From contig JAQUPG010000007.1 of the NCBI GenBank assembly GCA_028716725.1, positions 10,205 to 74,204 of the forward strand: DNA of 64,000 bases, read 5' to 3'. The position numbers and the translations under genes are program-made. Position 1 is the stretch's first letter; each line of letters begins with the position of its first letter. Origin of the DNA: Patescibacteria group bacterium (lineage in GTDB: Bacteria > Patescibacteriota > Patescibacteriia > Patescibacteriales > JAQTRU01). The notes beneath the pieces are model-generated. The model was not told the DNA's origin. It saw nothing but the letters and a program-made list of their open reading frames with translations, and searched no databases. This document shows positions 446-47,136 of the stretch, in pieces.

Positions 446-464
446 AAACTTCTAAAGGTGAGTT

Positions 465-506
465 CGTTATGCGTTATGCGTTATGCGTTATGCGTTATGC
501 GTTATG
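465..506. repeat. Perfect tandem heptamer (CGTTATG)x6 between the two permease genes
   Basis: Read directly. Six perfect units end 3 nt before the TAG stop (510-512) of the upstream permease. Confidence 0.95.
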
Positions 507-509
507 CGA

Positions 510-1763
510 CTACTCGTAATGCAGCGCCTGCACCGGCTCTAGGTGGGAAGCCTTACGGGCCGGATACAGCCCAAAAACCAAACCGACCAAAGACGAGACT
601 CCCACGGCCAGAACAATGGAAATTAAGGAAACGGAAAATTCCCAGTCGTAGTCCAAAAAATTGGCGACGATTGATATTAAAAAGGAGACAACCGCCCCGA
701 TAACAATGCCGATTATTCCGCCGATTAAAGTTATGGCGACAGATTCAATTAAAAATTGGTTTGAAATATTAGAATTAGTGGCTCCGACCGCCTTGCGCAA
801 GCCGATTTCCCGCGTTCTTTCCGTCACGCTGACGAGCATTATGTTCATAATCCCGATACCGCCAACCAGCAGGGACAAAGCCGCCATGGCTGCCAAAAAA
901 TAGCGCAGGGCATCAGTAATAGTTTTTACCATATCCAAAGCCTGAGCCGCGCTCCGGATCGTAAAATCGTCGCCAGCGCCGCTTTGGTCAAGAATATCAT
1001 GCCTTTCCCGCAAAGTAATAGTTACTTCTTCCATGGCTTCGGCAATGTTCTCTTCATAATCAACTTTAGCCCTGATCATATTAACGTGGTTAACCCCGAG
1101 CATCAGCTTCTGCATAGTCCGGATGGGAAGAAATATTTTGTCATCATAATCCTGAAAAGCGACCGTCCCTCTTTTAGCCATGACTCCGATTACTTCAAAG
1201 GTATGCTTTTTAATTTTTATCCTTTGGCCAACCGCATCAGATTCGCCGAAAAGTTCCTCTTTAACCGTACTGCCCAAAACTACTACTTTAGCTAAATTTT
1301 TTTCTTCCTCCTCGGAGAAAAAACGCCCTTTGGCCACTTCTCCGCCTTCCACCTCCATCATATCAGCCATACAGCCGCTTAAATTAGTATCATAAGTACG
1401 GGAGTCCCAGCTGGCCGTGCCCACGCCGTTTGAATAAGCGACCACGGCTGCTAAATGGGGCGCGTTTTTTTTGTCCCGCAAAGCTACGGCATCATCATAA
1501 GTAAGAGTTGTGATAACAATACCCATAGCTGAAGCCGGCGGACCTTCGTTTTCCGCTTTACCCGGCAGGACCCCGATTAAATTTGTGCCCAGACTTTTAA
1601 CCTGCGCCAAAATCAAACTTTGGGCTCCGGCCCCGACTGACATAATAATAATAACTGCTCCCACACCAATCACAATCCCAAGCATCGTTAAAAAACTTCT
1701 AACCTTATTAGCTAGAAGCGAAGTGGTAGAATTGCGAATACATTGTCTAATAATAGTTATCAT
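510..1763 (-). CDS. ABC transporter permease, MacB/FtsX family
   Basis: N-terminal TM, large extracytoplasmic domain, and a C-terminal FtsX region with GIMNIMLVSVTERTREIGLRKAVGA, the conserved MacB-type motif. Confidence 0.9.
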   Translation of the reverse strand: MITIIRQCIRNSTTSLLANKVRSFLTMLGIVIGVGAVIIIMSVGAGAQSLILAQVKSLGTNLIGVLPGKAENEGPPASAMGIVITTLTYDDAVALRDKKNAPHLAAVVAYSNGVGTASWDSRTYDTNLSGCMADMMEVEGGEVAKGRFFSEEEEKNLAKVVVLGSTVKEELFGESDAVGQRIKIKKHTFEVIGVMAKRGTVAFQDYDDKIFLPIRTMQKLMLGVNHVNMIRAKVDYEENIAEAMEEVTITLRERHDILDQSGAGDDFTIRSAAQALDMVKTITDALRYFLAAMAALSLLVGGIGIMNIMLVSVTERTREIGLRKAVGATNSNISNQFLIESVAITLIGGIIGIVIGAVVSFLISIVANFLDYDWEFSVSLISIVLAVGVSSLVGLVFGLYPARKASHLEPVQALHYE

Positions 1764-4170: not shown

Positions 4171-4199
4171 GGGCGGTTCAAGTGCGAGCCGCCTTTTTT
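4171..4199 (+). terminator. Rho-independent terminator of the 3322 gene
   Basis: An 8-bp stem (4172-4179 / 4186-4193), a 6-nt loop, then T6 (4194-4199). Confidence 0.75.
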
Positions 4200-4327
4200 A
4201 ATCCCGCACCTTTTAGGCGATTAAATATTTTGAATTTTGAAATATTTAGTTGTTATAATTAATTATTTTGGCAGCTAGTTATTTAGGTATTTAACGTGCA
4301 AGCGTTTCGCCTAAAAGGTGCGGGATT
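4200..4327. repeat. MITE-like element, copy 1: 21-bp perfect terminal inverted repeats around an 86-nt AT-rich core
   Basis: aatcccgcaccttttaggcga (4200-4220) is the exact reverse complement of tcgcctaaaaggtgcgggatt (4307-4327). The right arm abuts or overlaps the stop codon of the HlyD-like gene. A related copy lies at 38855-38956. Confidence 0.8.
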
Positions 4328-6239
4328 AATTCCCGTCTTTTACAAAAGTTATTGCCTGATCCCCTTCTTTAACTCCGGAAAGAACTTCAACCATGCCCTC
4401 GTCCCCCTGCAGGCCGATTTTTACCGGCATCTCAATGGCTTTTTGGCCGACCAAAATTCTTGCATATTTATCTCCGCCGTTTTTTTCCACGACCGCGCGG
4501 GAAGGCATTATTAAAACATTATCTCTGAAATTAGTGGTAATAATAACATTAGCGGTCATGCCTGATTTTATCCCGGCCATTTTTGTCTCATCTTTTTCCG
4601 TAAATTGGATTTTAACCTTATAGTAAGTCACGTCCTGGATAATTGTTTCTGCCGGCTCTATTGAATAGACTTTTCCAAAAAATTTCACCCCGTCGCCAAA
4701 AGCGTCCAAAGTAATTTCGACCGGGTTGTCCTTTTTTACCTTAGTAATATCAGCTTCCGAAATATCAACTTCAATTTCGAAATTATTTTCACCCAGGATG
4801 GCTATGGCTGGTTTGGCCGCCGTTGCCTGCTCCCCTAATTCATATTCAATCCTCACAACCGTCCCGTCTATCGGCGCTTTTATAATACTATCTCCAATTT
4901 GCTCTTTTGCCAAAGCCAAAGCGGCTTCGGCTTGTTTAACCTGGGCCCGATATAAAGACACGTCCTGAATCCTGGCTGGCGATTTAAGATTTTCTAGCTG
5001 GGCTTTTGCCACCTGCCAGGCTTCCAAGCTCGTATCAACCTTTGACTGAGCGGCCGCTACCTTCTGATCCCCGGCCAGCCGGACAGACGCTAAAGAATTT
5101 TTAGCTGACTTTATGGCATTAGCCAAATCTATTTTCGCTTTAGCCAAATCATCTTCAGCTCCGGTTACTTCTGTTTGGTAGGTTAAAACCGCATCCTCTA
5201 AATTGTGCTGCGCCGTTTGAACGGCGGAAATGGCCGTGCTAATAGCCGTAATCTGAGTGCTGATTGAGGTTTTGTAAACATCTAATTCGGTTTGGGTAAA
5301 AGCGGAGGAAACAACGCTGTTTTCCAAAGCCTTATAACAATAATCAAGGGCTTCAAAAACTTTATTTAGAGCCGTCAGGCAATTTTGGCTGGCGGTGATT
5401 ACCGCCGAATTGGTTTGAGCTGTTTTAGCCGTAGCTAAGCTGTTATTGGCCGCTGTCAGCAATTCTACGCCATCGGCGTAGGAACTTACCGTACTGGGGA
5501 GATAACTTCTATTTTTAGCCTTAAGCGGTTCTTCGGCATCGCTGTCTTCTAAAATCGTATTTATATTATCAAGAGCCGTATTGGCTATCACTAATTTATT
5601 ATCAACAGTTGTTAAAGCTACGCTTCTTTTGTTGTTAATTGACTGCTCGTAGGTGCTTTTAGCATTGGCTAAGTCCGTCTCCGCTAAAGTCACGGCTTGT
5701 TCATATGAAGTAATGTCGTCCGCCTGATTTGATTCTAAATCAGCCAGACTTTTTTCCGCCTGGGAAATATCTTCGGCTGTAGTTTTTTCAATTTTATCCA
5801 GTTCCGCCAAATTGGCTAAATAAGTGGCTTTAGCCTGGTCAACCTGGGCCTGGGAAACGGCAATTTCTTTAGAGGTGGCGCCGGCCAATAATTTATTCAA
5901 ATTAGCGTTAGCCACATCCAGATTAGCCTGCGCTTCCTGCTCTTTTATGGAAAACGAATTATAATCCAGCTCGGCCAGAACTTGGCCTTCCTTTACTTTA
6001 TCGCCCATTTGCACTGATATTTTTCCGACCTTCCCGCTTTGCAAAAAGCTTAATTCAATTTCCTGGGAAGATTTAACCGTACCCACTTCGCTTACGGTCT
6101 GGGTTAATTTACCCCTGGCCACCGTCACTGTCGTATATTCCGTTTTGTTTTTTTTGCCCATAATAAAAAATACGGACAAAGCCGCAATCGCCACTAAAAG
6201 TATCACTATAATTTTTATTCTTTTCCCGGTTATTTTCAT
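4326..6239 (-). CDS. HlyD/MacA-family membrane-fusion (periplasmic adaptor) protein with an unusually long coiled coil
   Basis: N-terminal TM. Lipoyl-like segment GKVGKISVQMGDKVKEGQVLAELD. About 350 aa of Ala/Gln/Leu-rich heptad-like sequence. C-terminal beta-barrel-like region ...GTVVRIEYELGEQA... It is adjacent to the MacB-type ATPase and permeases. Confidence 0.85.
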   Translation of the reverse strand: MKITGKRIKIIVILLVAIAALSVFFIMGKKNKTEYTTVTVARGKLTQTVSEVGTVKSSQEIELSFLQSGKVGKISVQMGDKVKEGQVLAELDYNSFSIKEQEAQANLDVANANLNKLLAGATSKEIAVSQAQVDQAKATYLANLAELDKIEKTTAEDISQAEKSLADLESNQADDITSYEQAVTLAETDLANAKSTYEQSINNKRSVALTTVDNKLVIANTALDNINTILEDSDAEEPLKAKNRSYLPSTVSSYADGVELLTAANNSLATAKTAQTNSAVITASQNCLTALNKVFEALDYCYKALENSVVSSAFTQTELDVYKTSISTQITAISTAISAVQTAQHNLEDAVLTYQTEVTGAEDDLAKAKIDLANAIKSAKNSLASVRLAGDQKVAAAQSKVDTSLEAWQVAKAQLENLKSPARIQDVSLYRAQVKQAEAALALAKEQIGDSIIKAPIDGTVVRIEYELGEQATAAKPAIAILGENNFEIEVDISEADITKVKKDNPVEITLDAFGDGVKFFGKVYSIEPAETIIQDVTYYKVKIQFTEKDETKMAGIKSGMTANVIITTNFRDNVLIMPSRAVVEKNGGDKYARILVGQKAIEMPVKIGLQGDEGMVEVLSGVKEGDQAITFVKDGN

Positions 6240-7085: not shown

Positions 7086-7856
7086 CTACCTGTTAATAAT
7101 TTTTTCTAAATATTTTTTCGCTTCTAATTGCTCTCTTAAAGGATTTTCCAACTCAATTGCGCAAATCGGCGGAAAATATTTTACATATTTTTTAACATAA
7201 TCCAACTCGGATAAATCATGCAACCAATGATTATTGTAATATTTCCTTTTCTCGCCGTTTTCAATTTCAAAAAAGGGTTTTGTTCGCATGGCAGATATGT
7301 GGCCGAAGCCAACTTTATATTTTTTTAAGACAGTGGGGAATTTTTTATAACTTTCCAGTTTCTGCATCTGGCTATAATCATGCCAATGGCTTACGTCCAG
7401 ACAAAAACCGGCAAAAATGTCCAAAAGATGAAGAGATTCATTTGAAAAATTAATATGATTTTCTAAATAAATTTTTTTTAGATACCCCTTACTTCTGGCT
7501 AAAAAATCTCTATTTACCTTGTTAAAATGAGTATTAAAAAATTTCGTCTTAAATCTCTTTGTTAAGTAAGCAAATTCCCATTTTTTAAAATCATGCCTTA
7601 CATGGACAACCGGAATTTCTTTTAAACCAGTTTTCTCCAATAGCTTATAGAGCTCTTCCCTTTCCTTAATTTCTAAGCAAGTGGGGAAAAGCGCGATTTC
7701 TTTTAGCCCTAATTTATCAATTTCTTTAACCTTACCTCGCCAATCTGATTTATAAGTAGTGGTCAATCCTAAAAGTATTTTTGGTTTCACCCCGTTAGAA
7801 ATTTTTTTTCTTTCTTTCTCCATAATATTTTTGCCCTTGAATATCTCTTCCCCCAT
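7086..7856 (-). CDS. Hypothetical protein (start could be the internal MEKERKK at 7823)
   Basis: Long ORF in the operon orientation. I recognise no diagnostic motif confidently. The N-terminal KKISNGVKPK is encoded by one arm of an inverted repeat. Confidence 0.6.
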   Translation of the reverse strand: MGEEIFKGKNIMEKERKKISNGVKPKILLGLTTTYKSDWRGKVKEIDKLGLKEIALFPTCLEIKEREELYKLLEKTGLKEIPVVHVRHDFKKWEFAYLTKRFKTKFFNTHFNKVNRDFLARSKGYLKKIYLENHINFSNESLHLLDIFAGFCLDVSHWHDYSQMQKLESYKKFPTVLKKYKVGFGHISAMRTKPFFEIENGEKRKYYNNHWLHDLSELDYVKKYVKYFPPICAIELENPLREQLEAKKYLEKIINR

Positions 7857-7902
7857 TAAAATTTTATTACTCTTCCTATCCGACCAAATTTCTAACGGGG
7901 TT
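7789..7902. repeat. Inverted repeat bracketing the start region of the 7086..7856 gene
   Basis: accccgttagaaattt (7789-7804) versus aaatttctaacggggtt (7886-7902). The same arms recur at 13078-13181. Confidence 0.8.
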
Positions 7903-7923
7903 CATAACAAAATAAAAAAACAC

Positions 7924-7958
7924 TATACGATACGCGATAGGCGTTATGCGATATGTGT
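7924..7958. repeat. Degenerate heptamer array of the CGTTATG family
   Basis: tatacga tacgcga taggcgt tatgcga tatgtgt, in the spacer between rfbB and the 7086 gene. Confidence 0.6.
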
Positions 7959-7967
7959 TAAGTAATT

Positions 7968-12103: not shown

Positions 12104-13111
12104 TTATAAATCTTTTTTAGTTAATAAGCCGTTCTGCGCTCCTTGTTCGGCTATAACCGAGGCGGTATTTCTTATGCCTAAATGCATGGCTTTGCCAATA
12201 TCGCCTTTATATAATTCCAAACCAGCCATAAAAGAAGAATTAAAAGCGTCGCCCACGCCCGTAGTATCAATCCGCTTTTTCTCTCTTATTATATTATGAT
12301 GATAAAATCTTTTGCCGTCATAAGCATCCGCCCCGTCTTTACCCCGGGTTAATACTACTGTCTCCGGTCCCCAAGATTTTATAATTTTTAGCAGTTCCTT
12401 TGGATTATTTAAAAATCCATAGTTTTTTTTCTTATATTTTGGGTCCGATACCACCAGTTCAATCGCCTCATCTTTGTTAACAAAAAAGATAGCGGTCTTA
12501 GCGATAAACTTCTTTAATCTTTTCGCTCCGGTATTAAGCTGGACATGCCCCGGGTTCCAGGCGACTTTTAAGCCCCTTACGGAAAACACTTTATTTAACA
12601 CTTCTTCCCATTTCCCCGACAAAGAAGCCACAAAAACCCATTTAGCATTTTTTAAACTCTCTAATTCCTTATTCCTAATTCCTAATTCAGAGTTCGCTGC
12701 CCGGTTGGAAAAAACGATTTTTTCCGGATTGATTAAGATAAAAGAAAACCCGGTTTCTACGCCTTTTATTTTCTGCGCCAATTTCGTATCCACCCTATGC
12801 TTTTTCAGATTAGCCAAAACTCTTTTCCCCCGTTCGTCATCGCCAATAGCAATTAAGCTCGCCACGCGAAAACCCAAACCGGCGAAATTTACGGCCGCAT
12901 TAGCCGCCCCGCCGCCGAAAGTGGAATAGGATTTATCAATTTTCATTTTGGCGCCGTATTCAAAAGCCAGCAATTTCTGTCTTAAAATATCCTTTTTATT
13001 GTCCATCAAGATTCCTTCGTGGGTATAAAAAGTTATATCCTCGGTGGCTCCGCCAATAGTGATCATGTCATATCTTGCCCCATTAGAAATTTTGTTATTT
13101 TTTTTCGTCAT
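12104..13111 (-). CDS. PfkB-family carbohydrate kinase
   Basis: PfkB signature DTTGVGDAFNSSF near the C-terminus, and GGGAANAAV near the N-terminus. Confidence 0.85.
   Translation of the reverse strand: MTKKNNKISNGARYDMITIGGATEDITFYTHEGILMDNKKDILRQKLLAFEYGAKMKIDKSYSTFGGGAANAAVNFAGLGFRVASLIAIGDDERGKRVLANLKKHRVDTKLAQKIKGVETGFSFILINPEKIVFSNRAANSELGIRNKELESLKNAKWVFVASLSGKWEEVLNKVFSVRGLKVAWNPGHVQLNTGAKRLKKFIAKTAIFFVNKDEAIELVVSDPKYKKKNYGFLNNPKELLKIIKSWGPETVVLTRGKDGADAYDGKRFYHHNIIREKKRIDTTGVGDAFNSSFMAGLELYKGDIGKAMHLGIRNTASVIAEQGAQNGLLTKKDL
12661..12688. repeat. In-frame heptamer array (CTAATTC)x4 inside the PfkB kinase gene
   Basis: ctaattc cttattc ctaattc ctaattc. It encodes ...SELGIRNKELE... on the minus strand. 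Confidence 0.8.
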
Positions 13112-13181
13112 ATAATTTATTTAAAAATATTTTTTATCTTATTAAAATTTGCTATACCCCCTAGTTAGATTTCTAACGGGG
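13078..13181. repeat. Inverted repeat bracketing the start region of the PfkB kinase gene
   Basis: ccccattagaaat (13078-13090) versus atttctaacgggg (13169-13181). Same arm sequence as 7789-7902. The inner arm encodes NNKISNG of the kinase N-terminus. Confidence 0.75.
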
Positions 13182-13219
13182 TTCATATTTTCTTCTTATG
13201 CCTCTCCAATTAACTGGAG

Positions 13220-13991: not shown

Positions 13992-14031
13992 ACGGCGATT
14001 GCTTTGCAACTTAGCAACCGCCGTTTTTTTA
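13992..14031 (+). terminator. Rho-independent terminator of the 13313 gene
   Basis: acggcgattgc...gcaaccgccgt hairpin followed by T7. It overlaps the stop of the convergent gene at 14029. Confidence 0.65.
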
Positions 14032-15561
14032 TTTTAAAACTTTTACTATTCCCTTATTAGCATCAACCTCTACTAATTGCCCATCGCGCAACACTTGTGT
14101 TGCAATTTTCGCGCCCACGACACAAGGAATCTTTAATTCCCGCGAAATAATAGCGGCATGGCAGGTTAAGCCGCCTTCATCGGTTACGATAGCTGCGACT
14201 TTTTTCAAACCGGTAATTAAATCCGGCTTAGTTATCGGCGCGACTAAGATGTCGCCCTTTTTTATTTTACCAATATCCTTAAAACTTTTTATAATTTTGG
14301 CCCGGCCACGAGCTTTACCTAAATTAGCAACCTGACCTTTTAATTCTCTTATTTCTTTACTCAGTTTAGCCAAAAATCCTTTTTCTTTTATTACCCGTTC
14401 AGCTTCTGCCCCAGCTAAAACTATTAACTCCCCTTTTCCCGGGCAAATAAGGGATAAACTCTGACGAGATTTAATTAAAGATCTTTTAGGTAAAATGTTT
14501 TTTGCTAAAAACTTTTTTGCTTCTAGCGGAGTTAAATACCGGAAATCCCTTACCGGCCAGCCCGCCCGGGAGGCAGCTTCGGCGAACAAAGGCCTGGCTT
14601 TAAAGCTGGTATAAGAAAAAACCGCCCCCAACTCTGTTTTAATAAAAGCAAAGGTTTCTGCATATTTAATTAATTTTTTTATCTGCGCTGGGGGATTTAA
14701 TTCTTTTATTATTTTTTTCTTCTGTCTTTTTACATCTGCCAGATAATTTGAAAGAACCCTATACTTTTTATTTAATTCATTTTTATTCTTTAACCAACTT
14801 TTAATTTCCTTAATATAAAATTCTTTTGGCCAATCCGGAGAATCAAAAAAAACAGGCAGCCAGCAAAATTTTTTATGAAGCTCATTAAACTCTCTATTAA
14901 TATCTGGATCCTCCTCTCTTAACCAAGCTAAAATAACCTCAACATCTTTTTTAAAGAAAAAATCATAGATTTTTTTCCTCTTTGAAATCTTTTTGGCGAT
15001 TTTTAAAATTCCCAGTTCATTTTTAATTTCGCTACTTAGACGAACCGGCGATACCAGAATACTTAAATAAGCAGCCGCTTTACCCCGGCCATTAATTTTC
15101 TCCAACAAATACTTTTCTAAATCAGCCGCTAAAGTAAGGTCAAACATCCGGCAGAGAGATGCATAAGGATGGTGAGCAAGAAAGGCCCGGCAATAATAAT
15201 CTAAAAGCCGGGTTGATTTCTTATTGGAGGCCCCGGCTAAATCTGTTTTGCTAATTAGTTCGGCTATTTTGCAAAAATCGTTACGAATATAGAAATAATT
15301 AGAAGCCAATCTGTCCAAAAATATTCTGTCTTTCTTCGCTCGACGGCCAAATATTTCCGCTAATTGATCAAACTGACCGGAAACAAGATAGGAAGTGGCT
15401 ACCTCGTCTTTTAAAATCGAACTGTAAGTAGATGCCCCCTGGCCTATAATTTTGGGCAAGCGGTAGACATAATTATAGTTACATAGATACCAAGGAAAAA
15501 GCGTAGAAAACCTAGCCAATTGCTTCTCCCAAATTATTTTTTTTGATTTTTTGGCTTTCAT
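14029..15561 (-). CDS. PEP-utilising-enzyme mobile (phosphohistidine swivel) domain protein, paralog 1 (510 aa)
   Basis: C-terminal ...[73 protein letters not shown]. The ~380-aa Lys-rich N-terminus has no motif I recognise. Confidence 0.8.
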   Translation of the reverse strand: [510 protein letters not shown]

Positions 15562-16553
15562 AATTTTGTCACTATCCCCTCATCAGCATTCATTTCTATC
15601 AAATCCCCATCTTTTAAAACCTGTGTCGCGGTTTTTGTCCCCACGATGCAGGGCTTTTTAAATTCACGGGATATAACGGCGGCATGGGAATTAATACCAC
15701 CGAAATCAGTAACCAAACCCAGAGCTTTTTTAATATAAGGCGTATATTCAATAATGGTTTCCCTGGCCACAATAATTTTACCTGCAGATTTCTTAACGTC
15801 AGATAAACTGCGCACTATTTTTACTTTGCCTCTAATTTTTCCTAAACAAGCTGCCAACCCTTTTACATCCCCGCTTTTATTATTTCTCAATTCTGCGAAA
15901 CCTTGTCTTTTTAAGAACGACGCAGCCGTTTCCCCCGTAAATATTTTCGTCCCCTTCTTGGTACCGAGAAAAACATAGAATTTTTTGCGCGCGTTAATCT
16001 CTTTACCGCCGACAGTCCCCGGCAATTCCTCAACAGTATAACGGTTAATCGGTTTCTTTTTATACTTTTTCCCCAAGAAGGAAAAAGCACGGTTATAAAG
16101 AGGGTAAATAATTTTTGCCCCCTTGTCGCGCAAGTCGCCGTTGCGCTCAATCAATTTGCTTAACCGCTTATTTTTCTTAAAATCAGCCAACCTTTCCGCA
16201 TAATACGAATAGATCAAAATCGGCCCGACATCTTTTATGGCATTTAGGCTCTTCTCGGCCAAATCCCGCCCGCGCAACTTATAATTTTTTATCAGCTTCT
16301 CATATCGGGCAAAAACTTTTTCCATTTCTTTATTCCGGTAATGCTTAACCGCTTGCCGGAAGTTTGCTTCATCTTCCTTTTTGTCTACGAATACATCCAT
16401 TTCCCCGTCATCGCCGATTGCCAGCAATTTGCTTAACTTAACGCCGTTTATTTTATCAATATCCAGATAAGTCCACTTCATAAAATCCCGTTTTAGGATA
16501 GAAGTCGGACGGCTCACAAAAAGTTTCCATTTTTTGCTTGTATAATTTATCAT
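15558..16553 (-). CDS. PEP-utilising-enzyme mobile domain protein, paralog 2 (331 aa)
   Basis: C-terminal ...GLVTDFGGINSHAAVISREFKKPCIVGTKTATQVLKDGDLIEMNADEGIV. ATGA overlap with paralog 1. Confidence 0.8.
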   Translation of the reverse strand: MINYTSKKWKLFVSRPTSILKRDFMKWTYLDIDKINGVKLSKLLAIGDDGEMDVFVDKKEDEANFRQAVKHYRNKEMEKVFARYEKLIKNYKLRGRDLAEKSLNAIKDVGPILIYSYYAERLADFKKNKRLSKLIERNGDLRDKGAKIIYPLYNRAFSFLGKKYKKKPINRYTVEELPGTVGGKEINARKKFYVFLGTKKGTKIFTGETAASFLKRQGFAELRNNKSGDVKGLAACLGKIRGKVKIVRSLSDVKKSAGKIIVARETIIEYTPYIKKALGLVTDFGGINSHAAVISREFKKPCIVGTKTATQVLKDGDLIEMNADEGIVTKL

Positions 16554-16564
16554 ATATTTAATTC

Positions 16565-17578
16565 TTATAATTTTATCACCTTACCTTTACCTGCGTCTAG
16601 CTTTATTTTATCCCCGGTTTTAAGGGAGTCCGTGCCGTTTTTGGTGCCGACAATGGTGGGAATTTTTAATTCGCGGGAAACAATCGAGGCGTGGGAAGTA
16701 ATCCCGCCCTGGTCAGCGACAATCCCCTTGACTCTTTTTAAATATGGTACAACGTCATACCTGGTGGTTGAGCAAACTAAAATTGCGCCTTGCGGAATAT
16801 TTTTAAAATCACTGGGCCGCAGAGCGACAAAAGCCGGCCCGGTTACTATTCCCGGATAAGCCGGATTACCGGTTAACTCAGAATTTTTTTCTTTCCTGAT
16901 ATTGCCGGCTTCTCTTTTAAAAAAATTATCAGCTTCTTTATTCCAGAAAACTTTTTCCTTCCCGTTAAAAAATAAGATAACCGCTCTTTTTCTTTTATAA
17001 AAATTCTTGGGCAATTTTCCTCCCCGGGCATAATTTAAAACCTCTTCAGGCAGAAGCATTAAAGCCTGCTTCTGCGACAAACCAAGTTTTTCACCCAGTC
17101 TTCCTCGCCAAATTTTTTCCGCGGCCAAAAGTTTTTTCACGGCCGCCTCTCTTGATAAGCCAAATCGCCTAAGTAATTTTTTATCCGCTTCCGGTATTAA
17201 ATTTTGGGCTAATTCAGGCAATTGAAAAACTGCCAACAAATCGCAAACACCTTTGAATAACTTGGGTAAATAGGGAATGAAATCGGCCTCTTTGCCAAAA
17301 CATTTTTTAGTCAGAGAAAGCATCTTTTCTGATCTCTGTTTAATTACTAAACTAAATTTTTGTACAAATCGGGTATTAAATCTTTTCTTATAATATTTTT
17401 TCAACAATTCCATATCCCGGGCCGACCGATAAGAATATTCAAGGCTATCAATATAATAAAAAAATACATTTTTAAAAGCCCAGCCAAAATCCCGTTTCAT
17501 TTCGTTCGTATAACCATGCCCCACCAGATAAACATCAAAAGGATAATATTCAACTTTGCGATTTAAAAACCAGCGCAT
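16565..17578 (-). CDS. PEP-utilising-enzyme mobile domain protein, paralog 3 (337 aa)
   Basis: C-terminal ...GIVADQGGITSHASIVSRELKIPTIVGTKNGTDSLKTGDKIKLDAGKGKV. Starts 12 nt after mreD. Confidence 0.8.
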   Translation of the reverse strand: MRWFLNRKVEYYPFDVYLVGHGYTNEMKRDFGWAFKNVFFYYIDSLEYSYRSARDMELLKKYYKKRFNTRFVQKFSLVIKQRSEKMLSLTKKCFGKEADFIPYLPKLFKGVCDLLAVFQLPELAQNLIPEADKKLLRRFGLSREAAVKKLLAAEKIWRGRLGEKLGLSQKQALMLLPEEVLNYARGGKLPKNFYKRKRAVILFFNGKEKVFWNKEADNFFKREAGNIRKEKNSELTGNPAYPGIVTGPAFVALRPSDFKNIPQGAILVCSTTRYDVVPYLKRVKGIVADQGGITSHASIVSRELKIPTIVGTKNGTDSLKTGDKIKLDAGKGKVIKL

Positions 17579-20513: not shown

Positions 20514-20612
20514 ATTTTCGCGCAACGCATAACGCCCGGAAATTACAGCAATTTAGCAATAAAATAATTTAACAATTTCCAAAAGTTCTAAAAATATTAA
20601 GAATTTCGTGAT

Positions 20613-20640
20613 ACGTTATGCGTTATTCGTTATGCGTTTT
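20613..20640. repeat. Heptamer array of the CGTTATG family overlapping the proS stop codon
   Basis: cgttatg cgttatt cgttatg cgttttg. It encodes the last residues ...KRITNNA and the TAA stop of proS. Confidence 0.75.
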
Positions 20641-21869
20641 GCAACTTCACTAATTTTTACCATCTCCACTTCTTTTTTATCTCTCTTCTTCACTTCCACG
20701 CTGTCCTTAGCCAGAGTTTTCTCGCTCACTACCAGCCGATACGGGCAGCCGATTAAATCCGCTTCGGCAAATTTTTCTCCCGCGCTAATCTCATCCCGGT
20801 CGTCATATAAAACTTCAACCCCATTTTTTCTCAAATCATTATAAAGTTTTTCCGTTTCTTTTTTAACTTTTGCTTCTTTGCTTCTCACTTCAATCAGATG
20901 GACCCGGAACGGGGCGATTTCTTCCGGCCAAATCATGCCTTGCTCGTCATGGCAGACCTCTACAACCGTTCCCATCAGCCGGCTCGGTCCAAGGCCGTAG
21001 CAGCCCATAATTACGTCCTGCTTTCCTCCTTTTTCATCCATATAAGAAAAACCAAAAGGTTTGGAAAAACGGGTGCCTAGTTTAAAAATATTTCCCACTT
21101 CAACCGCCTTTTCCTCGACAAAATCTTTTTTCTTACACTGCGGGCAGACTTTTTGCTCTTCTATAATCTCTTTATTGACGGCTATTTTACACTTCTTGCA
21201 AAGATAAATGGTATCTTCCCCGGTTTTGGCTAAAGTCTGGAATTCGTGGGAATATTTGGAAAAAGTACCGCCCAAAGCATAAGTTAAATAAGTAAGGTCG
21301 CCCAGGCCGCAGCGGGAAAATATCTTAAAATAACTCTTGATTACTATTTCATAAAATTTATTAAGATCTTTCTCGTCCGCATGAAAAGAATACAAATCTT
21401 TCATGGAAAACTCCCGGCCCCTGATCAGGCCGGCTTTGGCCCGAAGTTCATTCCTGAACTTAGTCTGAATCTGGTAAACGGCGGCGGGCAGGTCTTTGTA
21501 GGAAAAAATAAATTTTTTTACCAAAGGCGTTACGACTTCCTCATGCGTCGCTCCTAATCCATACTCTTTTTTATCGCCTCCGATTAATCTGAACAAAGCG
21601 TCAAAATTTTCCCAGCGGTTGGTTGCCGCCCAGCTTTCTTTCGGGATTAAAGCCGGCATTAAAATTTCCTGCCCGCCGATGGCGTCCATCTCTTCCCTGA
21701 TGATCCGGCAGATTTTATCATGGACGAGAAGGCCTAGGGGCAAAAACGAATAAACGCCGGCCGCCAGCTTATCAATAAAGCCGGCCCGAATTAACTGCCT
21801 GGCGTTAAAACTAGTTTCGTCTTTCGGCAGCTCTTTTATGGTTTTAGTAAAAAGTTTTGATTGAAGCAT
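20616..21869 (-). CDS. proS: Prolyl-tRNA synthetase, short form lacking the INS editing domain
   Basis: The N-terminus LFTKTIKELPKDETSFNARQLIRAGFIDKLAAGVYSFLPLGL matches bacterial ProRS, with class II motifs and an anticodon-binding C-terminus. A C4 cluster (CKKC...CPQC) sits where INS would be. Confidence 0.85.
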   Translation of the reverse strand: MLQSKLFTKTIKELPKDETSFNARQLIRAGFIDKLAAGVYSFLPLGLLVHDKICRIIREEMDAIGGQEILMPALIPKESWAATNRWENFDALFRLIGGDKKEYGLGATHEEVVTPLVKKFIFSYKDLPAAVYQIQTKFRNELRAKAGLIRGREFSMKDLYSFHADEKDLNKFYEIVIKSYFKIFSRCGLGDLTYLTYALGGTFSKYSHEFQTLAKTGEDTIYLCKKCKIAVNKEIIEEQKVCPQCKKKDFVEEKAVEVGNIFKLGTRFSKPFGFSYMDEKGGKQDVIMGCYGLGPSRLMGTVVEVCHDEQGMIWPEEIAPFRVHLIEVRSKEAKVKKETEKLYNDLRKNGVEVLYDDRDEISAGEKFAEADLIGCPYRLVVSEKTLAKDSVEVKKRDKKEVEMVKISEVAKRITNNA

Positions 21870-25717: not shown

Positions 25718-25816
25718 ATGTTTTCACGAAACATGCAGTATGAAACATGTAACACTATTAATTTTCAATTTTTAATTTTTAAACAATTTTTAATTTTTAA
25801 ATTCTTAAAAGTTTTG

Positions 25817-25957
25817 AAAATCACCATGGGGTTCGGGGGCCGAACTGAGCGCCAGGGCGAGCATATCTAAAGATTAATCAACGTGATAGCGAATTGAGGC
25901 CCCCGAAACTTCCTGCCTGCCGGCAGGCAGGTTGCCTACTTTTGGTTACAAAAGTAA
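25817..25957. repeat. Structured intergenic repeat, copy A (~95-nt core plus palindrome plus hairpin tail)
   Basis: aaaatcaccatggggttcgggggccgaactgagcgccagggcgagcatatctaaagattaatc...gcgaattgaggcccccgaaactt is near-identical to 29015-29109. ttcgggggcc pairs with ggcccccgaa 60 nt away. The tail hairpin acttttg-gtta-caaaagt is shared. Confidence 0.85.
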
Positions 25958-26028
25958 GTCTTAGCGAAGCGTCTATCTCATCTACCTAATCTTATAAATA
26001 ATACAGCAATATTAGTATTATGTCAATT

Positions 26029-27678: not shown

Positions 27679-28725
27679 TTATATTATTTTAATATTTAAT
27701 TTCACAGTTTTCCCCCTTGCCTTGGTCGCATACCACCCCGTCAACAATCCCGCCATTTCCAAAATTTTTTCTTCATTTTTAATTTCATCCAGCTTCAATT
27801 CTCTAACATTAAACTTTTTCGGAATCTGTAATTCAAAATTTCGTAATTTGTAAATTTGTAAATTTGTAAATTTGTAAATTCTCACTATTGTGAGCGGCCC
27901 TATTACCTCTTCCAACTCCATTATTATATCACCCTTTTTAGCTAATTTCTCTAGCGTCTGGCACTCTTCTTTATTTCTGCCCATCACTATTAAAGTTTTT
28001 CCTCCTAGCCAAAAAATTCGGCCATGCTTTAATAACTCTATATCTTCCGGTCCGCATTCCGGCCAATTTTTTATCATCTCCCGAGCTCTTTGGCTAAAAA
28101 CCGGGTCAGTAAGTAAGCAGCCTCCGGCCGGAGAAGGATAGGTAAAACCGTACTTTTCCGCCAATTTCATCTGCTTTTCTCTTGTTCTGCCGCTTATATC
28201 TAATAATTTTTTTCTATTTACCAGTCTTTTTTTCTCAATTTCCGTTTCCGGCAAAGCTAAAGCTGATAAAGGCCGCAAAACTTCTATTCCAGCCAGCTTT
28301 TTAACTCTTTCTAAAGCTCCGCCATTTTGCGACATCGGCCTCTGCCCTAAAACTTCACCCGTGGCAATAAAGTCATAACCTCTCCCCCTTACTCCCCCTC
28401 TCCTAATTAGGAGAGGGGGCTGGGAGGTGAGGTATTCCCCGGCCCGCTTTATCATTAAGGCGTGGCAGTCAATGCAAGGATTTAAACATTTTCCATAACC
28501 CGAAGCCGGATTTTTTACCATCTCCAAATGCTCTTTTTTAAATTCTATTTTTTTAAATTCAATGCCTAATTGCTGCGCCGCTTTCTCGGCTTTGGCTGTT
28601 CCAAAAAAACAACTGGCAAAGCTAATCCCCGTCACTTCTATGCCCTGTTCCATTAAAATTTTTGCCGCCAGCATCGAGTCCAACCCGCCAGAAAGCAGCA
28701 CCAAAGCTTTTATCTTCTTCTTCAT
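27679..28725 (-). CDS. PP-loop ATP pyrophosphatase, ThiI/MnmA-like tRNA sulfurtransferase family
   Basis: PP-loop LLSGGLDSMLAA and NPCIDCH. It carries two in-frame repeat insertions (see repeats 27845 and 28394). Confidence 0.55.
   Translation of the reverse strand: MKKKIKALVLLSGGLDSMLAAKILMEQGIEVTGISFASCFFGTAKAEKAAQQLGIEFKKIEFKKEHLEMVKNPASGYGKCLNPCIDCHALMIKRAGEYLTSQPPLLIRRGGVRGRGYDFIATGEVLGQRPMSQNGGALERVKKLAGIEVLRPLSALALPETEIEKKRLVNRKKLLDISGRTREKQMKLAEKYGFTYPSPAGGCLLTDPVFSQRAREMIKNWPECGPEDIELLKHGRIFWLGGKTLIVMGRNKEECQTLEKLAKKGDIIMELEEVIGPLTIVRIYKFTNLQIYKLRNFELQIPKKFNVRELKLDEIKNEEKILEMAGLLTGWYATKARGKTVKLNIKII
27845..27879. repeat. In-frame heptamer array (AATTTGT)x5 inside the PP-loop ATPase gene
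   Basis: Read directly. It encodes ...IYKFTNLQIYKLRNFELQ... on the minus strand. Confidence 0.85.
28394..28419. repeat. 26-nt perfect G+C-rich palindrome embedded in-frame in the PP-loop ATPase gene
   Basis: ccccctctcctaattaggagaggggg. It encodes PPLLIRRGG within the Pro/Gly/Arg-rich stretch TSQPPLLIRRGGVRGRG. Confidence 0.9.
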
Positions 28726-28988: not shown

Positions 28989-29014
28989 ATTAAAATTTTC
29001 CAATCAACTATTTT

Positions 29015-29135
29015 AAAATCACCATGGGGTTCGGGGGCCGAACTGAGCGCCAAGGCGAGCATATCCAAAGATTAATCCAGGGACTAGCGAATTGAGGCCC
29101 CCGAAACTTTTGGTTACTTTTGGTTACAAAAGTAA
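29015..29135. repeat. Structured intergenic repeat, copy B
   Basis: Same core as 25817-25911, with a few substitutions outside the 10-bp clamp. The tail has a duplicated acttttggtt before the shared hairpin. Confidence 0.85.
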
Positions 29136-29180
29136 CTCGCTGAAAGCGAAACTTTCCTGGCACCAACAACTCAAATATTT

Positions 29181-32105
29181 TTAACGTTTCTCTACGCGTA
29201 AAACAATTTCCTCTCCATTAATCTTCACCTTCTTGCCCTCACCGCCAGCGCGTATTTCATCAGCCAAAGTATCTTTCTTTATTTCTTCGCCAAATTTCTC
29301 AAAAACTTCTTTTATTTCTTTATTCTTCGTTTCGTAATAAATCACGGCTCTGTCTTGAATAGTCATCCCGGTTTCTTTGCGCAAATTATTTATCGCCCGC
29401 ACCAGTTCCCGTTTTACACCTTCTTGCACTAATTCCGGCGTCATTTTTGTATCCAGCTCAACTGTCAATTCTTTCCCTTCAACAAATTTCACTTCCTTCA
29501 CGTTTAGTTCATCTTTTATAAGTTCTCCATATTCTTTTGGTAATTCGTAATTCGTAATTCGTAATTCGCTAAGCGGTTGTCGCACTTTTATCCCGGATTG
29601 ATCCCGTTTACCTAACCCCATCTCCACAATCTTTCTCACCACTTCCATTTTCTCTAAAACCTTCTCATCAATCCATTCTTTCTTCACATCAGCCCATTCT
29701 TTAAGATGCACTGATTCAACATCTGCGCCCAATTCCTGATAAATATGTTCAGCCATAAAGGGCATAAACGGCGCCATAATCCGCGCCAAATGATACAAAG
29801 TCCGGCGCAAAATTTTTAACGCCCGCATTTTGTCAACTTCATCATCGCCTTTGAAGCGGTCTCTGGACCGGCGGACATACCAGGTTGATAAATCGTTTAT
29901 AAAAATCGGAATTTCGCGAATGGCCTGCAAATCATAATTATCCATTTTTTCCGTTACCACTTTTTTAGTCTCTTCCAAACGTGAAGTTATCCATTTATCT
30001 AGAATATTAACTAAATCTTTTTTCTCTAAATTTTCAATCTTTAAATCAGTGGCAAACATCTTATAGAAAGATAGAACATTGAGTAAAATATTAAAAAATC
30101 TGGTTTGCTCCGCCATATCTTTCTCGGAAAAATTTATGTTGTCGGCCTTCATTACCGGCGAAGCGCAAAGATAATAGCGCAAAGGATCAGCCCCGTACTT
30201 ATCCATTACTTCCATCGGGTCAGGATAATTCTTAAGCCGCTTAGACATCTTTTTTCCGTCTTCGGCCAAAACTATGCCGTTAACAATAACATTCTTAAAA
30301 GCGTGGCTTTTCTTTATTCCGGTGGCAATGGCGTGCAGATAATAAAACCAAGCCCTTGTCTGGTCAACGCCCTCGGCAATAAATTCGGCCGGAAAATTGG
30401 CTTCAAATTTTTTCTTATTCTCAAACGGATAATGCATTTGCGCGTAGGGCATTGACCCGGACTCAAACCAGCAATCTATCACATCCGGAATGCGTTTCAT
30501 AACTCCCCCGCATTTGCAGGCAAAAGTAATTTTATCTACCACATGCTTATGCAGATCCGTAATTTTTTGTTTGCTCAATTTTTCCAGTTCCTCAACCGAG
30601 CCAATCACTTTTCTTTCTCCGCAAGCACATTCCCAAATCGGAATAGCCGAAGCCCAATATCTCTGCCGCGAAATTGACCAGTCCCGCGCCCCTTCCAGCC
30701 AGTTGCCAAACCGGCCTTCTTTAATATGAGCCGGCACCCAGTTTATTTTCTTGGCCAATTTCAGCATTTTCGATTTTATTTTCGTAATCTTAACAAACCA
30801 GGAAGAAGTGGCGTAATTAAGAAGCGGGGTTTCGCAACGCCAGCAATGCGGATAGCTGTGCTCATATTTTTCCTTAGAAAATAAAAATCCCTTACCATCC
30901 AGATATTTCTTAATTTCCTCATCGGTTTTCATAACGTCCTCGGCTGGTTTAACATGTAGGCCGGCAAAATCCTTTGCTTCTTCTTTAATAATTCCGTCCA
31001 TGCCAACGTGCTGAACAAATGGTAAATTTTTCTCTTTGCCCAAATTCATATCATCCTCGCCAAAAGCCGGGGCAATATGAACTATGCCTGTTCCTTCTTC
31101 GGTTGTTACAAAATCCGCGGCATAAACTTTCCACCCGTTTTCTCTATTTCCTAATTTTTCATCAGAAGAATAATAACCAAATAATGGCCTATATTTTTTA
31201 CCGACTAAATTTTTTCCTTTTAGGGGTCTCGCTTTTTTAGTATAATCTTTTTCTGCAATTTCGGGATAAAATTTTAATGTATCTTGCACTCTATCTAAAG
31301 CTAAGATGTAAGATTCTCCACTCTTTTCTTCTCTAATTTTTATATAGTTAATATCTTCGCCCACTGCCAAAGCAACATTACCAATCAAAGTCCATGGGGT
31401 GGTAGTCCATGCCAAAAGATATGTTCCCGGTTCGTCTTCCAGTTCAAACTTAACGGTCACGGATAAATCTTTAACTATCTTATACCCTTCCGCCACTTCT
31501 GATTGCGATAAAGTGGTTTCGCATCTGGGGCAGATATGCATTGACCGATAATCTTTATAAATCAACTCCTTATCCCAAAGCTCTTTAAACACCCACCAAA
31601 CAGACTCCATATAATCTAAGTCCATGGTCTTATAAGCGTTTTCCATATCCACCCACCGGCCCATTCTTCTTACGGTTTTCTCCCATTCTTTGGCATAAAC
31701 CAAAACTTTGCTTCGGCATTGTTCGTTAAATTTTTCCACCCCGATTTCTTCAATATCTTTCTTGCTTTTAGTCTTCATCTCCTTTTCCACGATATTTTCA
31801 ATCGGCAAGCCATGGCAGTCCCAACCCCATCTGCGCTCTATCCGATAGCCCTTCATCGTCCAGTACCGCGGCACAATATCTTTCATTAAACTAGCCACAA
31901 TATGCCCATAATGCGGCGTACCGGTCGCAAACGGCGGCCCGTCATAGAAAACATAATCCTTTCTACCCCCTTGAAAAAGGGGGCTAGGGGGATTATTTAC
32001 GGATTTTTCAAAAATTTTATTTTTCTCCCAAAAATTCAAAACCTCCTCTTCCATAGCCGGCCAGGAGCTCTTTCTATCTATATTTTTATCCTTTTCTTTC
32101 ACCAT
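29181..32105 (-). CDS. ileS: Isoleucyl-tRNA synthetase
   Basis: HIGH motif PHYGH, KMSKS motif KMSKRL, CP1 editing region, 974 aa. Confidence 0.95.
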   Translation of the reverse strand: MVKEKDKNIDRKSSWPAMEEEVLNFWEKNKIFEKSVNNPPSPLFQGGRKDYVFYDGPPFATGTPHYGHIVASLMKDIVPRYWTMKGYRIERRWGWDCHGLPIENIVEKEMKTKSKKDIEEIGVEKFNEQCRSKVLVYAKEWEKTVRRMGRWVDMENAYKTMDLDYMESVWWVFKELWDKELIYKDYRSMHICPRCETTLSQSEVAEGYKIVKDLSVTVKFELEDEPGTYLLAWTTTPWTLIGNVALAVGEDINYIKIREEKSGESYILALDRVQDTLKFYPEIAEKDYTKKARPLKGKNLVGKKYRPLFGYYSSDEKLGNRENGWKVYAADFVTTEEGTGIVHIAPAFGEDDMNLGKEKNLPFVQHVGMDGIIKEEAKDFAGLHVKPAEDVMKTDEEIKKYLDGKGFLFSKEKYEHSYPHCWRCETPLLNYATSSWFVKITKIKSKMLKLAKKINWVPAHIKEGRFGNWLEGARDWSISRQRYWASAIPIWECACGERKVIGSVEELEKLSKQKITDLHKHVVDKITFACKCGGVMKRIPDVIDCWFESGSMPYAQMHYPFENKKKFEANFPAEFIAEGVDQTRAWFYYLHAIATGIKKSHAFKNVIVNGIVLAEDGKKMSKRLKNYPDPMEVMDKYGADPLRYYLCASPVMKADNINFSEKDMAEQTRFFNILLNVLSFYKMFATDLKIENLEKKDLVNILDKWITSRLEETKKVVTEKMDNYDLQAIREIPIFINDLSTWYVRRSRDRFKGDDEVDKMRALKILRRTLYHLARIMAPFMPFMAEHIYQELGADVESVHLKEWADVKKEWIDEKVLEKMEVVRKIVEMGLGKRDQSGIKVRQPLSELRITNYELPKEYGELIKDELNVKEVKFVEGKELTVELDTKMTPELVQEGVKRELVRAINNLRKETGMTIQDRAVIYYETKNKEIKEVFEKFGEEIKKDTLADEIRAGGEGKKVKINGEEIVLRVEKR
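29542..29569. repeat. In-frame heptamer array (TAATTCG)x4 inside ileS
   Basis: Read directly. It encodes ...SELRITNYELPKEY... on the minus strand. Confidence 0.9.
31966..31983. repeat. Perfect G+C-rich hairpin embedded in-frame near the ileS 5' end
   Basis: ccccctt-gaaa-aaggggg, followed by ctaggggg. It encodes part of NNPPSPLFQGGRKD just upstream of the HIGH region. Confidence 0.85.
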
Positions 32106-38854: not shown

Positions 38855-38956
38855 ATCCCGCACCTTTTTATTTTAAGCGATGTTTAACGCTTTGCCTAAA
38901 ATAAAATTTTATTAAATTAAAAACCTCATATAAGAGGGCTAAAAAAGGTGCGGGAT
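38855..38956. repeat. MITE-like element, copy 2 (15-bp terminal inverted repeats ATCCCGCACCTTTTT)
   Basis: atcccgcaccttttt (38855-38869) versus aaaaaggtgcgggat (38942-38956). The AT-rich core shares gcctaaaa / aagcg words with copy 1. It lies between the secA leader and the ParB-like gene. Confidence 0.75.
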
Positions 38957-47096: not shown

Positions 47097-47136
47097 CCCC
47101 ACACCTAATATTTATATATAAATATTAGGTGTGGGG
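47097..47136. terminator. 40-nt perfect palindrome right after the sugar-transferase stop (putative terminator)
   Basis: ccccacacctaatatttata|tataaatattaggtgtgggg. Read directly. Confidence 0.7.

Follow-up and report, generated by a model that had tools for sequence, protein, structure and literature searches.

MITEs (miniature inverted-repeat transposable elements), the non-autonomous derivatives of bacterial insertion sequences (ISs), are small, lack an open reading frame (ORF) of their own, possess terminal inverted repeats (TIRs) and a short target-site duplication (TSD), and occur in many copies with different flanks, including subfamilies with conserved interiors and copies that are present in one relative and absent from another (PMC10969869, PMC3184786). 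All of these features recur in a family of elements, here of approximately 30-140 bp, identified from a 64,000-nt window (the whole stretch of DNA analysed) of Patescibacteria contig JAQUPG010000007.1. Two sites in the window, each at the start of a gene (site 1, and site 2 in a gene encoding a PfkB kinase), are very probably copies of a non-autonomous, MITE-like DNA transposon inserted in the ATGAA of the gene start. The family differs from described bacterial MITEs in that no cognate IS was found at the loci compiled, in that the same 13-bp ends occur across several phyla, and in that the copies of the type found in candidate phyla radiation (CPR) bacteria lie almost exclusively in ATGAA starts and rebuild a start codon at the junction. 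We found no account in the literature searched of the arm sequence, of the associated peptides, or of MITEs in CPR bacteria or at start codons, including in a 2024 review of prokaryotic MITEs (PMC10969869), in which the term 'start codon' is absent, so that such residence is not described there. The family is apparently undescribed, cross-phylum and common in these ultra-small bacteria, with a distinctive geometry that regenerates the start codon.

Several other systems offer points of comparison. Correia elements possess 26-bp TIRs and a TA duplication and are restricted to Neisseria, whereas the family described here has a 13-bp TIR of different sequence and a 4-bp TRAA duplication. These Correia/NEMIS elements are co-transcribed MITEs of ~100-150 bp whose TIRs form a stem in the mRNA that is cut by RNase III, altering the fate of the transcript (PMC10969869), and by analogy they are the best model for a possible role of the stem considered below. 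Rickettsia palindromic elements are palindromic, tolerated in coding genes, and translated, adding a conserved peptide to unrelated proteins (PMC10969869). They differ in being inserted in frame within ORFs and read through, whereas only 21 of 111 copies of the present family are read through from the original ATG, the remainder creating upstream ORFs (uORFs) of 6-41 codons including the ATG; typically, a uORF is combined here with a start at the extreme N-terminus that is either regenerated or internal, and a clear TIR and TSD are present. ISEcp1-type ISs (IS1380 family) resemble the family as mobile elements that give expression signals to a neighbouring gene, but supply promoters rather than, as here, a start codon and leader, and not evidently a promoter. 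The 'CC' ends and 4-5 bp duplications given for the IS1380 family in the ISfinder table resemble the CCCC ends and 4-bp TSD of our elements, which we take as a lead only, and the ISEcp1 end, CCTAGATTCTACGT, shows no meaningful similarity to the TIR. Elements of the REP/REPIN type are mobilised by RAYT, lack a TSD and are extragenic, whereas our elements have a clear 4-bp TSD and copies inside gene starts, and no RAYT-like gene was found among the window ORFs scanned. Integron attC sites, in which R'' (RYYYAAC) precedes R' (GTTRRRY) 3' of gene cassettes in arrays, were considered and rejected; here the box order is reversed (GTTAGAA...TTCTAAC), and single, TSD-flanked copies lie at the 5' ends of genes.

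At both window sites 13-bp inverted arms (CCCCGTTAGAAAT / ATTTCTAAYGGGG) are spaced by 78-85 nt (Table 1). Allowing at most one mismatch, this 13-mer occurs in four places only in the 64 kb, corresponding to the four arms, compared with 0.49 in shuffled sequences (0 of 100 shuffles reached four). The upstream arms are embedded in an identical 19-mer, TATGAACCCCGTTAGAAAT, and the 18-mer ATTTCTAACGGGGTTCAT, which includes GTTCAT, occurs exactly twice in the window against 0.05 expected; with AAATTTTAAT also common to both, the two units can be aligned end to end, beyond their arms alone. A tRNA-like or T-arm reading of GGGGTTCA was rejected, as no tRNA was predicted in the window by ARAGORN and no complementary stem was present. 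The downstream arm is translated as ISNG at both sites (MGEEIFKGKNIMEKERKKISNGVKPK, containing ...MEKERKKISNGVKPK, at site 1; MTKKNNKISNGARYD at site 2), and the inverted arms and shared KISNG N-terminus reported in a preliminary description of this DNA are therefore confirmed by arm coordinates, translations and shuffles. That the arms bracket a start codon, as also reported there, holds with two corrections. An ATG lies 21 nt 5' of the 3' arm at both sites, which at site 1 is the second ATG (7823; MEKERKK-ISNGV), the counterpart of the site 2 start, rather than the one at 7856 selected by the ORF caller; furthermore, the upstream arm is itself preceded by the original ATG of the gene.

Insertion can be read directly from relatives in which the sites are empty. 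We removed each element with four nucleotides in silico and aligned the excised window sequence pairwise to related contigs (243 loci were compiled in total, numbered in the style of L001). Excision predicts ATG AAA TAT GAC ATG ATC (MKYDMITIGGA...) as the start of the kinase gene and ATG AAA CCA AAA ATA CTT (MKPKILLG...) as that of the site 1 gene. When the kinase was used as a protein query, MKYD or a close variant formed the N-terminus in 118 of the best 120 PfkB homologues, with KKNNKISNGARYD found only in the two closest (87-88% identity). Site 2 is absent from L239, L240 and L241, which have syntenic DNA and orthologues of 84-87% identity, and present in L242, L243 and L027. The three empty sites read AAAATATGAA-ATATGAC (in longer context ...AGAAAATATGAA-ATATGACATGAT...), the start region of their PfkB orthologues being AGAAAATATGAAATATGACATG; the region upstream of site 2 is homologous in these relatives, from which the window differs by exactly the element plus four bases. 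Site 1 is empty in the syntenic contigs L242 and L243 (ATGAAACGAAAAATAC), which do carry the site 2 insertion, and in L242 (ttattATGAAACGAAAAATACTTTTGGG, or more briefly ATGAAACGAAAA) the excised window aligns without a gap through the junction, the product of the orthologue being 234 aa. By sequence comparison, these empty sites prove insertion at both window loci, and with the homologue counts they support the possibility, raised in the preliminary description, that the KISNG extension is an insertion.

The two copies differ in age. At site 1 a direct TGAA repeat lies outside the arms at both ends (A-TGAA-CCCC...GGGG-TGAA), and the perfect arms and perfect TGAA/TGAA duplication indicate the younger insertion. 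Site 2, flanked by TGAA and CAAG, is judged from the sequences to be the older copy, given one arm substitution, a TSD decayed to CAAG (CGAG in the L027 orthologue), and its presence in three sampled relatives. The old ATG of site 1 now heads a 9-codon uORF (MNPVRNLVG, followed by a stop; 7905..7876), and that of site 2 a 14-codon uORF (MNPVRNLTRGYSKF, followed by a stop; 13186..13142). The GTG at the site 1 junction is in frame and at the position of the original ATG, and a start there gives 234 aa, the length of the L242 orthologue; this young and intact copy would thus yield the ancestral protein from the GTG at 7790, with the element-borne ATGs at 7856 and 7823 also present. At site 2 the junction start has been lost (GCA AGA), so the internal ATG at 13111 would be needed, and the arm-encoded ISNG is therefore a predicted part of the PfkB protein. 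Tandem heptamer repeats (GCGTTAT / CGCATAA-like, 3-6 units) were also observed in four intergenic regions of the window (458-525, 7914-7967, 20607-20646 and 29539-29578). One array lies directly upstream of the site 1 element, and since L242 has a like repeat at the orthologous position (14670-14700), this array is older than the site 1 insertion.

Table 1. Positions of the element copies and associated start-region features in the window.
Feature	Position	Strand	Details
Site 1, element	7790..7900	minus	111 bp; 5' TIR CCCCGTTAGAAAT at 7900..7888; 3' TIR ATTTCTAACGGGG at 7802..7790
Site 1, degenerate third arm copy (interior)	7861..7850	minus	TTTTAATGGGGG
Site 1, original gene start	7905..7903 (feature 7901..7905)	minus	ATG; overlaps 5' TSD copy TGAA at 7904..7901
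Site 1, 3' junction	7786..7790	minus	Last TIR base G (7790) + TSD copy TGAA (7789..7786) = GTG AAA CCA AAA
Site 1, internal in-frame element-borne ATGs	7856..7854 and 7823..7821 (feature 7821..7856)	minus	
Site 2, element	13078..13181	minus	104 bp; 5' TIR at 13181..13169, same 5' arm as site 1
Site 2, 3' TIR	13090..13078	minus	ATTTCTAATGGGG; one C>T change; one G.U position
Site 2, degenerate third arm copy	13168..13157	minus	CTAACTAGGGGG
Site 2, original PfkB start	13186..13184 (feature 13182..13186)	minus	ATG; overlaps 5' TSD copy TGAA at 13185..13182
Site 2, internal ATG (present PfkB start)	13111..13109	minus	MTKKNNK-ISNG-ARYD
Site 2, decayed 3' TSD copy	13074..13077	minus	CAAG in place of TGAA; regenerated GTG-AAA now GCA-AGA (Ala-Arg)

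The family extends well beyond the window. A genome scan with the exact 18-mer ATGAACCCCGTTAGAAAT, using one genome per species, identified >115 loci, compared with a chance expectation of ~17 for a random 18-mer (a rough estimate), and a scan of metagenome contigs with CCCGTTAGAAAT-N40-70-ATTTCTAACGGG, unbiased with respect to flanks, identified 120 loci comprising 124 elements, both locus counts being lower bounds. In almost all listed genome loci ATTTCTAACGGGGTGAA follows the 18-mer by 20-130 nt. By record title these loci belong mostly to Patescibacteria of many classes, with Omnitrophota, Planctomycetota, Desulfobacterota, Nitrospirota, Elusimicrobia and Ignavibacteria also among the listed matches. 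Across the genome and metagenome matches listed, >235 loci carry the arms within differing flanks. The preliminary description had named a lack of further start-straddling copies, together with orthologues sharing the N-terminus, as evidence that would count against it; on both counts the opposite was found, with many further pairs in the genome (>115 loci) and metagenome (at least 120 loci) matches.

Among the listed metagenome elements, to which the counts in this paragraph refer, the TIR comprises 13 bp, (C/T)CCCGTTAGAAAT, and its first and last bases co-vary (C..G 95, T..A 21, A..T 3). Identical 4-nt flanks directly outside the arms were found for 84 of the 124 elements, compared with 15.8 +/- 3.5 when partner flanks were permuted (maximum 28 in 5000 runs), and this identity was specific to 4 nt, with only 3, 4 and 0 elements matching over 3, 5 and 6 nt, respectively. 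The duplicated 4-mers were TAAA (35), TGAA (34), TCAA (6), TGAG (3), and TGGA, TAGA, CAAG, TGTA and CAGG (1 each), with AGAA, CGTG and TGTG present in additional copies among the genome loci; the preferred target is TRAA. A 5-bp duplication combined with a 12-bp TIR was also considered; it fits the T..A copies (ATGAA/ATGAA) but fails many C..G copies (ATGAA vs GTGAA), and was rejected. Taken together, the co-varying identical flanks, the covariation of the arm ends, and the subfamily, nested and minimal copies described below represent the signature of a transposon with a 13-bp TIR and a 4-bp TSD.

Between the arms, the interior is conserved in neither sequence nor length (3 to ~140 nt), and with lengths of 29-139 bp the elements could not encode a transposase; in 54 of 111 of them a third partial arm copy was present. 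Minimal 29-bp forms (arm, 3 nt, arm) are likewise repeat-flanked, and in two nested cases (L074 and L102) a mini-element lies inside the arm of another element with its own CTAA duplication. In one subfamily of 95 nt the interior is conserved but the flanks change at almost every locus. This subfamily and its 68-nt deletion derivative were observed on metagenome contigs including L129, L135, L146, L152, L154, L167, L183, L188, L204, L214 and L215, which are GC-richer, the target being nearly always TAAA preceded by (A/G)G. Two internal hairpins, TTCCAGCGGGG..CCCCGCCGGAA and CCCCGCTGC..GCAGCGGGG, were predicted by eye in its interior, and the same interior was found in Deltaproteobacteria and Thermodesulfobacteriota metagenome-assembled genomes (MAGs; L005, L071 and L098). 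A further subfamily with a conserved interior (CTTGGC..AAAAAATTT..ACGGGGTAT..GTCTGAAATTAGC) comprises L017, L019, L040, L096, L100 and L106; in L106 (~2817, minus strand) the element directly follows an apparent tRNA 3' end, read by eye (...GGGTTCAAATCCCACCGTCCGCACC abutting ATGAACCCCGTTAGAAAT). Three copies were also identified on two viral-classified IMG/VR contigs (L236 3127-3203, L237 3246-3323 and L238 4676-4756), two of them on one 30-kb uncultivated virus genome, which suggests phages as a possible vehicle between hosts. The occurrence of near-identical ends in distant phyla that have groundwater and sediment habitats in common also points to a horizontally mobile transposase.

Residence at start codons was apparent from the flanks. 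In the flank-unbiased metagenome sample, the base before the 5' TGAA was A (30 elements), G (3) or T (1) but never C, and before TGAG it was A in 3 of 3; in every listed TGAA or TGAG case the preceding base creates ATG, GTG or TTG. Upon excision in silico, ORFs of at least 60 codons begin at 32 such sites, and at 26 of the 32 the frame is closed within 20 codons upstream. Sites resembling gene starts account for 26/36 (~72%), compared with 11.5% of 2266 other ATGAA sites on the same contigs (p = 3e-17). Many copies, especially those of the TAAA class, lie away from gene starts. The bias may reflect either targeting or survivorship.

On the favoured reading, that of a MITE-like transposon, each copy would have entered the ATGAA that opened the gene (ATG AAA ...), the duplication leaving the old ATG upstream at the head of a short uORF (MNPVRN...) and placing a second TGAA just past the 3' arm. 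The last arm base and the duplicated TGAA form GTG AAn where the arms are of the C..G type, or ATG AAn where they are T..A, in the frame of the gene and at the position of its original first codon, and would thereby regenerate a start; at other loci, an ORF of at least 60 codons begins at this junction codon in 64/71 and 30/35 elements. The coding sequence is left intact, which, judging from these sequence statistics, is most likely why insertions at start codons survive in gene-dense genomes. An in-frame, stop-free ATG upstream of the junction was found in 51 of 78 GTG-junction elements and in 1 of 16 ATG-junction elements (Fisher p = 1e-5), and 5 of the latter 16 have a stop no more than five codons upstream of the junction. 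Interior ATGs are approximately 3-fold enriched in frame (61, versus 20 and 16 in the other two frames). We dropped in-frame restoration as independent evidence, as it is an automatic consequence of both remaining frames of the arm containing stops.

For the many G-type copies in which an in-frame ATG lies a few codons before the 3' arm, translation would read the arm as I-S-N-G-V, accounting for the KISNG shared by the two window genes. M-x(1-12)-ISNGV(K/N) opens dozens of predicted proteins that are unrelated to one another, as might be expected of a functional N-terminal motif (MNPVRN... / ...ISNGV) such as a targeting signal. Several findings make this reading barely credible. ISNGV is the only readable frame through the 3' arm, since the other two contain TAA and TGA; the codons are invariant at the nucleotide level; T..A-type copies start past the arm, without the peptide; and 118 of the best 120 PfkB orthologues lack it. 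In addition, the arm varies non-synonymously as often as synonymously (ISNRV, ISNGM, ISNGA, VSNGV, TSNGV and IPNGV), and selection therefore acts on nucleotides rather than on the peptide. Unrelated genes in L021, L027, L088 and the window share the leader MxKKNNK-ISNG, which indicates that the ATG and first codons travel with an element subfamily. From these comparisons the KISNG peptide is arm-encoded and the MxKKNNK leader element-borne.

The arms are also paired in the minimum-free-energy fold of the RNA at both sites (site 1, z = -3.98; site 2, z = -2.56; both relative to shuffles), as had been anticipated in the preliminary description, which went on to propose that two sugar-related genes may share a device for translational control. 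Extended to the whole family, that proposal amounts to a cis-regulatory RNA (a riboswitch, thermometer or protein-binding leader) controlling a regulon through a long-range stem around the ribosome-binding site and start. Folding energies better than shuffled, the strong conservation of the arm sequence across phyla, the compensatory changes between arms, and the third partial arm copy, with which the 5' arm could pair in an alternative hairpin, all agree with such a role. Against it, the loop has no conserved sequence or length, and the downstream genes are functionally unrelated, those at >200 other loci apparently including, judged from their N-termini, genes for the ATP synthase beta subunit, prepilins, family-2 glycosyltransferases, RpiB and Rossmann-fold epimerases. 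Many copies, the TAAA class in particular, are not at gene starts; and insertion rather than an ancestral leader is indicated by the 4-nt duplications and, at both window loci, by close relatives in which the site is precisely empty. No Rfam family was matched, with only tRNA, 5S and noise recovered from the window at the gathering threshold and from 13 loci at E <= 1. As the origin of the element, regulatory RNA is largely refuted, and we regard it as a very unlikely explanation; the idea of control shared by the two window genes is not supported by these findings.

An inverton, in which the arms would be recombinase sites and flipping of the segment would switch the start region on or off, has next to no probability in our assessment. 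Inverted repeats of 13-16 bp do bracket a segment containing the start, but direct 4-nt repeats lie outside the arms, empty sites exist, and forms with a 3-nt spacer cannot invert meaningfully. Fusion of the upstream ATG by inversion, as read by eye, would be out of frame at site 1 and end in TAG at site 2, and no recombinase gene lies beside either site.

As a transposon insertion, the element may nonetheless affect expression of its host gene. In mRNA the arms are predicted to form a stem of 13-14 bp enclosing the working start, which may lower or condition translation, and the passage of ribosomes along the uORF would melt the 5' arm, opening the stem, which could couple uORF translation to the downstream start. 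The stem may also attract RNase III, by analogy with what is documented for Correia elements (PMC10969869). A promoter-like TGnTATAAT lies upstream of the site 2 element and is conserved in empty-site relatives, which suggests that the element is transcribed as part of a leader; a promoter belonging to the element itself was considered and rejected, no convincing consensus being found inside it. The alternative raised in the preliminary description, of a small mobile 5' cassette, was thus correct in that the element is mobile and provides a start and N-terminus, and incorrect in that it landed inside the ATGAA start and not in front of the gene, and shows no sign of supplying a promoter.

Several points weigh against a conventional transposon. 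No autonomous copy, with a transposase between the same TIRs, was found among arm pairs 0.4-6 kb apart or solo arms at the 243 loci, and a Pfam scan of 40 window ORFs, each at least 220 aa long, detected no transposase. The genome scan was ascertained with ATG in its pattern, and the metagenome scan required 12 fixed nt in each arm and a gap of 40-70 nt, with a few contigs duplicating one locus. TSD type tracks subfamily, TAAA after G occurring mostly in the 95-nt family and TGAA after A in the CPR-type copies. Furthermore, many compensatory arm changes separate the subfamilies (e.g. AGAGAT/ATCTCT and AGACCT/AGGTCT); these are more typical of hairpin selection than of simple sites for transposase binding, and the chemistry of mobilisation may therefore not be standard DDE cut-and-paste. 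The failure to find a DDE partner at these loci, the association of flank type with subfamily and the preserved complementarity of the arms would fit site-specific recombination, with the 4-nt 'duplication' as a crossover core acted upon by a tyrosine, serine or DEDD recombinase or a single-strand hairpin enzyme. Perfect flanking repeats are formed by no fewer than ten different 4-mers, however, the 95-nt subfamily has perfect repeats of both TAAA and TGAA, which a staggered-cut duplication fits better than a fixed core, and the nested copies use CTAA; recombination of this kind accordingly appears improbable. Within the transposon reading, the compensatory arm changes could reflect mobilisation through a folded single strand rather than classical DDE chemistry.

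The window contains other repeats. A second inverted-repeat family was found at 4198-4329 and 38855-38956, as well as at 18151-18271 of L242. One copy has perfect 23-bp arms (TTAATCCCGCACCTTTTAGGCGA / TCGCCTAAAAGGTGCGGGATTAA) and an 86-nt loop and lies between two convergent genes, and the other, located 5' of the SecA gene, has arms of 15 bp and a loop of 72 nt. The first copy is kept in L242 with a compensatory change (TTTTAGGCGA>TTTTGGGCGA paired with TCGCCTAAAA>TCGCCCAAAA), and has TTAA/TTAA flanks if the arms are taken as TCCCGCACC...; this family could represent a structured RNA, a terminator, or a related MITE sharing the TCCCG end. Two perfect zero-spacer palindromes, CCCCACACCTAATATTTATA-TATAAATATTAGGTGTGGGG (40 bp, 47097-47136) and CCCCCTCTCCTAA-TTAGGAGAGGGGG (26 bp, 28394-28419), have CCCC...GGGG ends which recall the minimal arm-spacer-arm forms of the transposon, with a different sequence. 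A GC-rich direct repeat of 99 nt occurs in two copies 3.2 kb apart with 92% identity (25813-25911 and 29011-29109), each followed by a 29-nt palindromic repeat, TTGGTTACTTTTGGTTACAAAAGTAAC (25932-25960 and 29110-29138, respectively); both copies are intergenic, downstream of minus-strand genes, and yielded no Rfam hit at the gathering threshold. At 14029-17578 we also observed three consecutive paralogous genes (510, 331 and 337 aa), each ending in a PEP-utilising-enzyme mobile domain. Given that syntenic L242 has a single such gene, these paralogues represent a local expansion in the window genome.

Beyond the insertion of individual copies, we tentatively suggest that this transposon lineage is adapted to start codons, a proposal that we hold with considerably less confidence than the transposon itself. 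Its transposase, or a hairpin-recognising enzyme, would favour (A/G)T(G/A)AA, the element end and TSD would recreate an in-frame GTG or ATG, and subfamilies that recreate only GTG would carry a spare ATG and leader. If so, insertion would be nearly neutral in genomes almost without intergenic DNA, which would explain the spread of the 13-bp end across CPR classes and several other phyla, and a portable leader comprising a uORF and stem-loop would be installed, rewiring the translation of housekeeping genes.

These findings also have consequences for annotation, in that recurrent ISNGV N-termini and MNPVRN mini-ORFs will be mis-called in thousands of MAGs of CPR and other bacteria. At element loci the gene start could be assigned to the original ATG, to an internal ATG or to the junction GTG or ATG, an ambiguity which recognition of the element resolves. 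As natural presence/absence markers, the elements lend themselves to strain-level population genetics of uncultured lineages, and they provide a testable case of a mobile uORF and hairpin leader imposed on housekeeping genes. More generally, they show how a transposon can persist in streamlined genomes, by occupying the one coding position that can be repaired by the geometry of its own insertion.

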